The translations under genes and the position numbers were made by a program. A stretch of DNA of 39,258 nt from a virus (lineage: Duplodnaviria > Heunggongvirae > Uroviricota > Caudoviricetes), in IMG/VR virus record IMGVR_UViG_2519899560_000023; one strand, 5' to 3'. The notes beneath the pieces are model-generated. The model was not told where the DNA came from. It saw only the letters and a program-made list of their open reading frames with translations, and searched no databases. Shown here in pieces: positions 469-39,258 of the stretch (positions are counted from its first letter, which is position 1; each line of letters begins with the position of its first letter).

Positions 469-869
469 CAATCCAAAATATATCGCCAGACGATAGACCA
501 AAAAGAAAGTATTTAGCAGATACTCAACATTCTGACTTCTGTACAGAAATAGCAGAGCTTAAAAACTTAAAACTTCCGGTACTCATCAGAGAAACATCCA
601 GTTTCTTCTGCAAATTCATTGTAACCAGGTGAATCATTTGATACCAACGAGGGTTTTAGTGAAAGGAGGTGAAATCACCTGTAAGATACTGAAATAAAAC
701 AGGTGATGTCTGGATGAGCGCTTAAAGTCTATTTGATACCGATTGTGCAATAATTAATCGTTTATTCTAAAATCGGCAAAACTTTTGATACTGCGATCTC
801 AACTTTTTAAAGCGTTTAAAACTTCATTAAATCTATATGGCAACTAACATACGGGCCAGCCTCGCCAAA

Positions 870-1400
870 CTAACCCGCTTTAGATTCTACCGGATTTGAT
901 TGCCTACTTGTCTCGGTTTTTTCCAAAATCTCTCTGACGCAATCGTCTGGCATATCTACAATCATCAACGCAGCCAGGCGCTTCCTGCCTTCTAGTTGTA
1001 ATAAATCCTGGTTTTCTTTATCCAGCAGTGTCAGAACCGTCTCTACACCTTTGCGAGCAAGGAGATTGGTTAACTGTTCTCGTTCGTCTTTCGTAAGGAA
1101 TGAAAGCATCTGTGTAAGTTGATCTCCCTTATCACCAGAACAACCAAAATTACCACAAATACCAACATCGTTTGGTGATTCACCCTTGCCCTCTTTAAGC
1201 CACTCAAGACTAACTCCTTCACTTTCAGAAATTCGTATAAGGATACTTTCTCTGGGGGCTGGTTGTGTTTGTCCTCCCTTGAAATAGCTGTTTAATGTGT
1301 TGATATTGATTCCCCACGCTCTGGCAGCTGCACTTCTTGAAGGGTAGCGCTTTGTAAGCATTCCAATACGTTCAATAACAGGTTCTTTTCCCTGCGACAT
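870..1400 (-). CDS. prophage repressor with HTH DNA-binding segment, divergent from ner
   Basis: Track ORF 870-1475 (TTG); likelier ATG at 1398-1400 with AGAGG upstream; HTH-like segment RSAAARAWGININTLNSY; position equivalent to Mu c. Confidence 0.6.
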   Translation of the reverse strand: MSQGKEPVIERIGMLTKRYPSRSAAARAWGININTLNSYFKGGQTQPAPRESILIRISESEGVSLEWLKEGKGESPNDVGICGNFGCSGDKGDQLTQMLSFLTKDEREQLTNLLARKGVETVLTLLDKENQDLLQLEGRKRLAALMIVDMPDDCVREILEKTETSRQSNPVESKAG

Positions 1401-1475
1401 AAAGATACCTCTTGGTGCTTTTCTAAGGAAAGGTTTCTTTCTATTTATCCAATTGAAAAATAAGGATAAAAGCAA

Positions 1476-1590
1476 AAATTAGCCAAAATACCAAAAATAC
1501 CTTGATTTGGTATTTTTGGTGATGCATTATTTACCCGTGCAGATATCCGCACGAATATCCGCGCGGGTAACTTTTTAGAATAGAGGAAGT
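1476..1590. promoter_or_regulatory. divergent early promoter/operator region between repressor and ner
   Basis: Perfect 12-bp inverted repeat ACCAAAAATACC(1490-1501)/GGTATTTTTGGT(1509-1520); direct repeats ATATCCGC at about 1543 and 1555; AT-rich. Confidence 0.55.
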
Positions 1591-1839
1591 ATGAGTAGAA
1601 GAGAAGTTTCAGATCACGATTGGCCGCCTGAAATCATCAAGGCGCGCTTACACATGGCTGGCTTATCACTGCGCTCTTTATCTTTAAAGGCTGGTTACAG
1701 CAGGGATTCGCTGAAAAGCGTATTACGTACTCCTTGCCGACCGTATCAGCAAATAATTGCTGATGCTCTTGGGGTATCGCCTGAAGAAATCTGGCCCAGT
1801 AGATACCAGGTTAAGAGCTATATGAGAAAGGCGTCATGA
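1591..1839 (+). CDS. ner: Ner-like DNA-binding protein
   Basis: 82 aa; C-terminal QQIIADALGVSPEEIWPSRYQ resembles Mu Ner (Nlp family); GAGGAAG SD; immediately precedes transposase. Confidence 0.8.
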   Translation: MSRREVSDHDWPPEIIKARLHMAGLSLRSLSLKAGYSRDSLKSVLRTPCRPYQQIIADALGVSPEEIWPSRYQVKSYMRKAS

Positions 1840-1840
1840 T

Positions 1841-38066: not shown

Positions 38067-38105
38067 ACCCAGCATAGTTCCAGCTATGCTGGGTTTCACT
38101 TTTAT
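38067..38105 (+). terminator. rho-independent terminator upstream of com/mom control region
   Basis: Perfect 10-bp stem CCCAGCATAG/CTATGCTGGG, 6-nt loop, then TTTCACTTTTATG. Confidence 0.65.
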
Positions 38106-38169
38106 GTAGTATCCTGTTGATTTGAAACATACTACATATACGCGTGATCCTACCTTCACTGTATAAAAA

Positions 38170-38330
38170 GTCAATAAAATGATCATTTTATGATCGTTTT
38201 CACCACCTAACTCTTCGTTTTCTTTAAGTAAATAATCACCTCCCTGAATCATTGTTGATGACTTTTCAATCTATTTGTTGTATCAATTAAACAAATCGAA
38301 TCGATCGTTTTTGTCGATCGATTGCATGAG
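38170..38330 (+). promoter_or_regulatory. putative mom-operon promoter/control region with paired GATC sites
   Basis: GATC at 38181, 38192, 38303, 38316; 9-bp perfect inverted repeat AATCGATCG/CGATCGATT at 38299-38323; AT-rich. Confidence 0.5.
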
Positions 38331-38366
38331 AAAGGCATCAACAACAAAGCAGGAGGTTATGCGGTC

Positions 38367-38567
38367 ATGTATCGAAACATACGGTGCCGACACTGCAATA
38401 AGCTACTGGCACGGGCCAGTTTCAGTTATCTGGAAGTAAAATGTCCGCGCTGTAAAACCCTCAATCAAATCACATCTCCGAGCGCCACAGAGCACCCCAC
38501 ATACACAAGGAAATCCTGTCGTGGGGAACAGAAAGCAAGTCACATCCCGAATCATCAGCACGCCTGA
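38367..38567 (+). CDS. com: Com zinc-finger translational activator of mom
   Basis: [10 protein letters not shown]...VKCPRCK...EHPT matches the remembered Mu Com pattern; AGGAGG SD; track ORF begins at TTG 38322. Confidence 0.85.
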
Positions 38568-39258
38568 ACTTATTCGCTATAACGACAATATCGTTGGTTA
38601 TGGCTCCCGTGAGTTGCGGGTTGAGACAATAAGTTGCTGGCTGGCCAGACTGGTCATCGTCAATAAACATTACAGCCACCGTTTCGTAAATAACTCCTAC
38701 CTTCATCTGGGCATATTTTCAGAACGGGAACTTGTTGGCGTAATGCAATGGGGTTACGCCCTTAACCCAAACAGTGGTGCACGCGTCGTAACGGGTACGC
38801 AGAACCGAGAATATATGGAGCTTAACCGGCTATGGCTGCATGACTGTATGCCGAGAAACTCCGAATCAAGGGCAATCAGTTACGCGCTCAAGCTAATCAG
38901 GCAGCTTTATCCGCAGGTACAGTGGGTTCAGTCGTTTGCAGATGAGCGTTGTGGCTGTCTTGGTGTCGTGTATCAGGCAAGCAATTTTGATTATGTAGGC
39001 AGCCATGAATCAATATTCTATGAACTTGATGGCGAGTGGTATCACGAGATTTGCAGGAATGCCATTAAACGAGGCGGACAACGAGGTGAACATCTGAGGG
39101 CTAATATTGACAGAGCCAGTGTTCATAAGTTCCGACAGTTTCGTTACATCCGGTTTCTGAACAAGAGGGCCAGAAAACGCCTCAACACAAAGCTATTCAA
39201 AGTCCAGCCTTACCCAAAACCACAAACAGTTAAAACTGGTTTGAAAGAGAGTGAATGA
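38521..39258 (+). CDS. mom: Mom-like DNA modification protein
   Basis: 245-aa ORF beginning with GTG inside the 3' end of com, ending at window edge; start uncertain. Confidence 0.7.

Follow-up and report, generated by a model that had tools for sequence, protein, structure and literature searches.

The 39,258-nucleotide stretch analyzed here (IMG/VR record IMGVR_UViG_2519899560_000023; hereafter, the window) almost certainly carries, from 620 to 39258, a Mu-like transposable prophage of the Sp18 type known from Escherichia coli O157:H7 Sakai, that is, a temperate myovirus with DDE transposition that entered an E. coli chromosome by transposing into a ccdA-like remnant. Judged from its genes, this copy is apparently intact. 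The Sp18 prophage type is already known since the Sakai genome, to which the window contributes a further insertion site. What appears mildly new, as read from the sequences, is a 4-bp target duplication with a TA terminus, together with a chimeric repressor.

Mu homology, host junction and distribution

For comparison with the Mu proteome (NC_000929.1), 59 candidate open reading frames (ORFs) of the window were translated and searched by BLASTP against the 54 annotated Mu proteins. Matches were obtained for 41 of them, and the Mu order was never broken, up to com and mom. Mu-specific Pfam families also scored above their curated cut-offs (Mu-transpos_C, HTH_Tnp_Mu_1, Phage-MuB_C, Phage_Mu_Gam, Mor, Zn_ribbon_Com, and Mom). 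An earlier note on this DNA had proposed a near-complete Mu-like transposable prophage, colinear with Mu, inserted by transposition and encoding proteins diverged from those of Mu. All of this was borne out. For the proteins that it had singled out for BLASTP, A, B, portal and sheath, the identity to Mu was 22%, 48%, 57%, and 51%, respectively. No tyrosine or large serine integrase was detected in any frame examined by BLASTP, Pfam, and PHROG searches of the window ORFs, and the sole recombinase was a 186-aa Gin invertase. The left flank has a low GC content (~40%) and is followed by ~38.6 kb of mainly plus-strand ORFs. All protein-coding genes are present and open inside the window, with only the right-end ~128 bp lying beyond it, and each ORF with a counterpart in Sakai Sp18 is open with the expected length.

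As the earlier note had advised, a prophage-free relative was compared. The empty site was found in RM9975, where it reads ...gcaaattcat/ttaatgccgag within a "CcdA family antitoxin" coding sequence (CDS; 3567-3704 of the RM9975 locus, minus strand), and the match to the window ends at 619; the left 600 bp align with chromosomal DNA of prophage-free strains. Independent copies in other genomes start to match the window at 620, and each left junction that was read falls exactly on the TG of the phage tip, which places the host-phage junction at 619/620. The note had correctly put the right end outside the window, but its undefined left end and its start at 469 are now replaced by a defined tip at 620. 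Nor did its suggestion hold that the ORF at 1-468 is an interrupted flanking gene. This ORF is complete in prophage-free genomes, thousands of assemblies annotate an identical product as a full gene, and the 155-aa protein had no match in Pfam, PHROG, or PADLOC. The interrupted gene is instead a ccdA-like ORF on the other strand, which encodes 45 to 59 aa with a PF07362 (CcdA) match in other assemblies and lies between the 155-aa gene and folA. For annotation, the value lies in a left boundary set at 620 and in the identification of the truly interrupted gene.

The flanking host DNA forms a small island of low GC content, located between apaH and folA and consisting of a DUF4291 gene, the 155-aa orphan gene, and the ccdA remnant without ccdB. 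In GCA_046575835.1, an IS110-family insertion replaces the same ccdA-like remnant (window ~560-620), between the 155-aa gene and folA. The ccdA-like spot has thus been struck by mobile elements more than once.

The phage itself is widely distributed. Both parts of the phage, 620-25000 and 25000-39258, have contiguous counterparts of ~100% identity at other loci (e.g., in strains F1 E4 and 2313), and matches covering at least 80% of the query were found in about 200 to 230 (198-227) of 5426 complete E. coli genomes, roughly 4%. Identity to Sakai Sp18 (NC_002695.2, 5040971-5079729) is 99.8-100% at both extremities. The insertion loci read were sorM, two Shiga toxin (Stx) phages, IS609 tnpA, a prophage lysis gene, a prophage tail gene, and hyaE-torS; here, it is the ccdA remnant. 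Seven distinct flanking loci were read directly, and the presence of near-identical phage DNA at unrelated sites shows that insertion is non-specific. Among phage records, megablast returned two full-length relatives, both described as "inserted Bacteriophage Mu-like phage" within Stx phages. As reported previously, Sp18-like Mu phages occur at variable sites in Shiga toxin-producing E. coli (STEC), both O157 and CC119 (PMC7430833, PMC10132054), and Sakai Sp18 was predicted to be intact and had its DNA packaged, with no circular form and no induction by mitomycin (PMC2669165).

Termini and target duplication

The left tip of the phage is TG (620-621). On this strand, TTGATAC occurs five times in the 39-kb window, and three of the occurrences fall within 170 bp of the left tip. 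Those at 638, 733, and 785 are candidate transposase-binding sites resembling L1, L2, and L3. The last base of the window is the last base of the mom stop codon; the phage runs 128 bp past this point, to ...GGTATCAAAAAAATCGCCGCGCTATA, both in Sakai and in strain 2313, whose copy is 100% identical. The Sp18 right end carries three inverted copies, GTATCAA, clustered within 90 bp of the right tip. The repeat nearest the tip lies at positions 18-26 from it at both ends, and the right tip was fixed at ...CTATA because of this shared register. It reads ...GCGCTATA, with TA-3', does not vary among seven copies, and is in register with the left tip. The ends of Mu are laid out as L1...L2-L3 and R1-R2-R3, and the Sp18 repeat layout matches.

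The right terminus of Mu is CA-3', and the earlier note had expected TG...CA termini with a 5-bp duplication here as well. The Sp18 type departs from both expectations. Six independent Sp18-type insertions elsewhere show TG...TA and a perfect 4-bp duplication each, the fifth base never matching when both junctions were read: taaa in Sakai (in sorM), catc in LC727881, agag in LC727895, gata in E2865 (in IS609 tnpA), gtaa in UTME-4 (in a prophage lysis gene), and ttct in OkiPb01685 (in a prophage tail gene). The 4-bp duplication is also annotated, without comment, in the GenBank records LC727881 and LC727895. A 5-bp duplication was rejected, as the fifth base on the left is t, t, t, c, g, and t, whereas the right always has A. 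Including the initial T of the phage in the duplication was likewise ruled out, the next right-hand bases being g, a, c, t, t, and g. Strain 2313 was excluded as a seventh duplication, since its hyaE and torS flanks do not match. Known duplications are 5 bp in Mu and 6 bp in B3, and a review of transposable prophages lists only these two lengths (PMC8705779).

For the window copy, the duplication is predicted to be TCAT (616-619), with the 4-bp length carried over from the six other insertions. A simple insertion predicts a right junction of ...GCGCTATA or ...CTATA, followed by TCAT and then by the folA side (TTAATGCCGAG / TTAATGCCGAGATGG / TTAATGCCGAGATGGCATCC). Annotators who look for TG...CA ends and a duplication of 5 bp would overlook or wrongly place the ends of the Sp18 lineage.

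Early control, tail-fiber switch and gene modules

The coordinates of the features are collected in Table 1. The repressor matched phrog_3037, "transcriptional repressor" (E 1e-62), and its residues 91-174 matched phrog_7148 (E 2e-10), aligning colinearly with residues 83-159 of Mu c, while BLAST gave no match between the repressor and Mu c. The XRE-like helix-turn-helix (HTH) that had been noticed earlier was recovered by PHROG, Pfam, and AlphaFold as an N-terminus of the CI/Cro type: the first 70 residues form a five-helix domain with weak PHROG matches to CI-like families, and 16 of the 27 members of the repressor family match Pfam Phage_CI_repr. In the AlphaFold model, this domain (predicted local distance difference test, pLDDT, ~90) superposes on P22 c2, 434 Cro/repressor, SinR, and 186 CI with template modeling (TM) scores of 0.64-0.77; a direct search of the repressor sequence against PDB chains gave nothing useful. 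In Mu, the repressor and the transposase share their DNA-binding domain, the Mu winged helix. Here, no similarity was found between the repressor and transposase A, whose N-terminus is HTH_Tnp_Mu_1 and matches the N-terminal region of phrog_7148. Between the repressor gene and ner lies a perfect 12-nt inverted repeat (1490-1501 and 1509-1520, ACCAAAAATACC / GGTATTTTTGGT, 100% complementary, 7-nt spacer) with related direct repeats nearby. The position of this palindrome (1490-1520) makes it a likely operator of the CI-type repressor.

Transposase A matched phrog_310, transposase (2e-212), and the Pfam families Mu-transpos_C (1.5e-17; 63.8 bits, cut-off 21.7) and HTH_Tnp_Mu_1 (1.9e-6; 28.7 bits, cut-off 23.3). 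Its alignment with MuA is highly diverged (E 9e-10), with D309 and D375 aligning with D269 and D336 of MuA. The Glu motif GIIERLNR aligns with the catalytic region of Rous sarcoma virus (RSV) integrase, and 40 residues separate the second Asp from the Glu. Directly downstream of A, the gene for B encodes a protein with Phage-MuB_C (2.5e-25, 88.6 bits) and AAA_22 domains.

At the other end of the phage, a small serine invertase lies beside a segment with inverted gix-like sites that splits a fiber gene, an arrangement typical of a putative Gin/Hin-type invertible tail-fiber switch. The left site, gixL TTATCGATAACGTCGGTTTACGGGAA, agrees at 22 of 26 bases with what we take to be the Mu gix site. 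The inverted arms of the segment (182 nt, 78% complementary) encode the starts of the two alternative fiber ends. The single U-type chaperone gene is on the minus strand, so that in the present orientation, in the window and in Sakai, the fiber gene has no co-oriented chaperone. An invertible host-specificity region of Sp18, with genes distinct from those of Mu, has been described (PMC2669165).

Between gin and com lies an accessory region whose ORFs had no Mu match by BLASTP and no PADLOC match. Its esterase gene shares 77-81% DNA identity with genes found in many Stx-converting phages; for one of these genes, the annotation is 9-O-acetyl-N-acetylneuraminic acid deacetylase. The com/mom end of the window is 100% identical in DNA to Sakai Sp18.

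In the remaining modules, only one Mor/C-family gene was found, with no second member in the window by BLASTP against Mu or by Pfam. The lysis cassette was assigned by homology, with the same genes annotated in Sakai and E2865. Within the tail module, N is 34% and the baseplate proteins are 48-53% identical to their Mu counterparts by BLASTP. In the G-I spacer, the candidate central gyrase site contains a ~27-35-nt block, CGTGATTTTCTAACCTGTATTTAACGG, that is conserved relative to Mu CGGGATTTTTAAACCGGTATTTAACGG, the region immediately to the right of the strong gyrase site of Mu. The gp35 homologue contains a perfect hexanucleotide repeat, (AGCCGA) x 10.8 (21452-21516), coding for an Ala-Glu run. 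In Sakai Sp18 this repeat is 12 nt shorter, so its length is polymorphic between copies.

Several candidate features were set aside. Long antisense ORFs (up to 308 aa) had no Pfam family and were therefore treated as spurious. A "tRNA-OTHER" between F and G is recorded in one RefSeq record of the E2865 copy (locus 17943-18023; window ~18290-18370); ARAGORN and Rfam returned nothing in the window. No defense system was found by PADLOC among the orphan ORFs.

Table 1. Features of the window, with positions, strands, and supporting remarks (identities are to the Mu counterpart)
Feature	Position	Strand	Remark
Host gene, hypothetical, 155 aa, complete	1-468	+	matches WP_001248979.1 at equal length in prophage-free RM9975
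3' part of interrupted ccdA-like antitoxin remnant	567-619	-	empty site in RM9975 within "CcdA family antitoxin" CDS
Left end (attL)	620-800	+	terminal 5'-TGTAACCAGGTGAATCATTTGATACC; three TTGATAC repeats (638, 733, 785)
Repressor, 176 aa	870-1400	-	CI/Cro-type HTH N-terminal domain and Mu-c-like C-terminal domain
Divergent control region	1401-1590		between repressor gene and early operon
Ner-like early regulator	1591-1839	+	43% identity; Pfam HTH_35, E 2.5e-19
Transposase A, 696 aa	1841-3931	+	DDE: D309, D375, E415
Transposition ATPase B (target capture)	4002-4934	+	48% identity, E 1e-95
Semi-essential early region	4937-10599	+	kil-like, gam, gp11, gp12, gp9-like, gemA, several small genes without Mu counterparts
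kil-like gene	5159-5425	+	
gam	6287-6817	+	57% identity; Pfam Phage_Mu_Gam, 1.5e-41
gp11 / gp12	within 4937-10599	+	67% / 53% identity
gemA	10090-10599	+	44% identity
Mor/C-family late-transcription activator	10669-11094	+	39% identity to Mu C; Pfam Mor, 2.8e-32
Lysis cassette and TraR/DksA gene	11166-12568	+	homology
Endolysin	11166-11666	+	39% identity to Mu lys
Rz	11701-12129	+	overlapped by Rz1-like ORF
TraR/DksA zinc-finger gene	12341-12568	+	between lysis cassette and head genes; no BLAST counterpart in Mu
Head module, including gp25 and gp26	12549-21130	+	34-73% identity, Mu order
Small terminase	13147-13728	+	57% identity
Large terminase	13728-15392	+	73% identity
Portal	15392-16981	+	57% identity
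F	16965-18290	+	61% identity
G	18409-18882	+	54% identity
Candidate central gyrase site	18925-18965		G-I intergenic spacer
Protease/scaffold I	19059-20183	+	48% identity
Major head T	20183-21130	+	67% identity
Head-tail joining and contractile tail module	21174-32468	+	gp35-38, chaperone, N, P, gp45-48; 34-64% identity, Mu order
Sheath	22788-24290	+	51% identity
Tube	24299-24664	+	49% identity
Tape measure	25282-27357	+	36% identity
Tail fiber S, constant part and variable Sv in present orientation	32468-33379	+	46% identity to Mu S N-terminal part; phrog_1833, E 5e-166
G-like invertible segment, ~1.4 kb	32985-34385		inverted gix-like sites 32985-33010 and 34360-34385
U'-type fiber-assembly gene	33414-33935	-	29% identity to Mu U'; PHROG matches
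Alternative fiber end S'v	34018-34377	-	PHROG matches
Gin-type serine DNA invertase	34440-35000	+	76% identity; Pfam Resolvase, 1.4e-51, and HTH_7
Accessory (moron) region, ~3 kb, absent from Mu	35100-38252		between gin and com
Sialate-O-acetylesterase-like (NanS-like) protein, 679 aa	35100-37139	+	Pfam SASA, 6.5e-12; C-terminal DUF6645, 2.4e-69
DUF1378	37286-37468	+	
DUF826	37504-37749	+	
Hypothetical gene	37788-38252	-	
com	38367-38567	+	47% identity; Pfam Zn_ribbon_Com
mom, complete	38521-39258	+	79% identity; Pfam Mom, 4e-77

Proposed working, alternatives and comparison with known phages

The present data comprise homology, gene order, the left-end position, the empty site, and variable insertion sites; the regulatory and transposition steps of the following scheme are taken over from Mu. 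The CI/Cro-type repressor would silence the divergent early promoter, probably by acting at the palindrome at 1490-1520. Loss of repression would lead to synthesis of the Ner-like protein, transposase A, and the AAA+ ATPase B. A would then bind the TTGATAC repeats at both ends, nick the 3' ends, and join them to a target chosen by B, and repeated replicative transposition would amplify the genome while Gam guards the ends. The single Mor/C-family activator would turn on the lysis, head, and tail genes, and headful packaging would take up phage DNA together with host flanks. Gin would invert the 1.4-kb segment and thereby swap the tail-fiber tip, and Com and Mom would modify the DNA.

Three observations weigh against a simple insertion into the ccdA-like remnant. 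Neither the right end nor the second duplication copy falls inside the window, so that a simple insertion is unproven for this copy. The identical phage in strain 2313 (NZ_AP027159.1) has hyaE on its left and torS on its right, with no duplication, which suggests a phage-associated deletion or rearrangement adjacent to it. In addition, an assembly with the exact window junction was not found: none of the 5426 complete E. coli genomes had a stretch covering at least 80% of window 1-1500, two exact-pattern scans of species-representative genomes for the source junction found nothing, and the assemblies sharing the flank protein had only empty sites and one IS110 insertion at this spot. The first two observations would also fit a rearrangement (a deletion or inversion) brought about by transposition or recombination, of which the window copy forms one end, with a right flank other than the folA side, and replicative transposition of Mu yields such rearrangements. 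However, both ends were read for seven copies, and six of these proved to be simple insertions flanked by a perfect 4-bp duplication; we consider a rearrangement in the window unlikely.

A fixed, defective Mu-like remnant, unable to transpose or to make particles, is very unlikely. It could account for the lone, at present wrongly oriented chaperone gene in the fiber segment and for the frameshifted portal, F, or sheath genes of some copies elsewhere, but not for the open state and expected length of every ORF with a Sakai Sp18 counterpart, nor for the ~100% identical copies at differing loci in closely related strains, which imply recent movement, nor for the packaging of Sakai Sp18 DNA (PMC2669165). 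The CI/Cro-type repressor domain, as in lambdoid phages, is the one feature in keeping with an integrase-dependent (lambdoid or P2-like) prophage that has att sites and carries Mu-like morphogenesis genes. Since the frames examined contain neither a tyrosine nor a large serine integrase, A and B genes stand at their Mu positions, and insertion sites are non-specific across genomes, this explanation is already refuted, and its probability is negligible. A Sp18-type prophage that inserted by transposition is therefore retained.

The closest known systems are Sakai Sp18 and the Sp18-like Mu phages of STEC (Phi804-3 of FRIK804 and Mu_JNE082796 in LC727881), which have the same gene set and order and share the left tip. 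The window copy lies in the ccdA-like remnant beside folA, whereas the Sakai copy lies in sorM, and the back half of the window (from 20000) is only ~87% identical to the copies in LC727881 and LC727895. Among cultured phages, the closest transposases are those of SuMu of Haemophilus (43%) and of D3112-like Pseudomonas phages (H70, JBD5, MP38, and others; ~30%), over ~90% of the length. Beyond A, these phages gave only isolated DNA matches to the window within the phage collection, for example, a 716-nt large-terminase stretch at 77% in two Pseudomonas phages. The D3112-like phages are siphoviruses.

Mu shares the architecture and the order from ner, A, and B to com and mom, as well as Gam, GemA, and the Gin/gix system, and its structural proteins are 35-73% identical. 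At the DNA level, however, only 830 nt (4% of the first 20 kb) align with Mu, D108, and SfMu by megablast, at ~70% identity, and genome-wide similarity to Muvirus was not found. The repressor also differs from that of Muvirus, being of the CI/Cro type rather than a winged helix shared with MuA. Mu has mor plus C, and a 3-kb invertible segment with two chaperone genes, whereas the window phage has one Mor/C gene and a 1.4-kb segment with one chaperone gene; the ~3-kb moron block of the window phage is missing from Mu. As for the ends, L1 likewise stands apart from L2-L3 in Mu, and the three repeats at the right end of Sp18 are clustered, but Mu has a 5-bp duplication and CA-3' where the Sp18 type has a 4-bp duplication and TA-3' at the right tip. 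It is reasonably probable that Sp18-type phages transpose with a geometry other than that of Mu, in which a divergent transposase cuts targets 4 bp apart, the right terminus is TA-3', and immunity is uncoupled from the transposase through a CI/Cro-type HTH swapped into the repressor in place of the Mu winged helix. With their 4-bp duplication, TA terminus, and CI-type repressor, these phages offer a convenient natural comparison for target spacing by MuA-family transpososomes.

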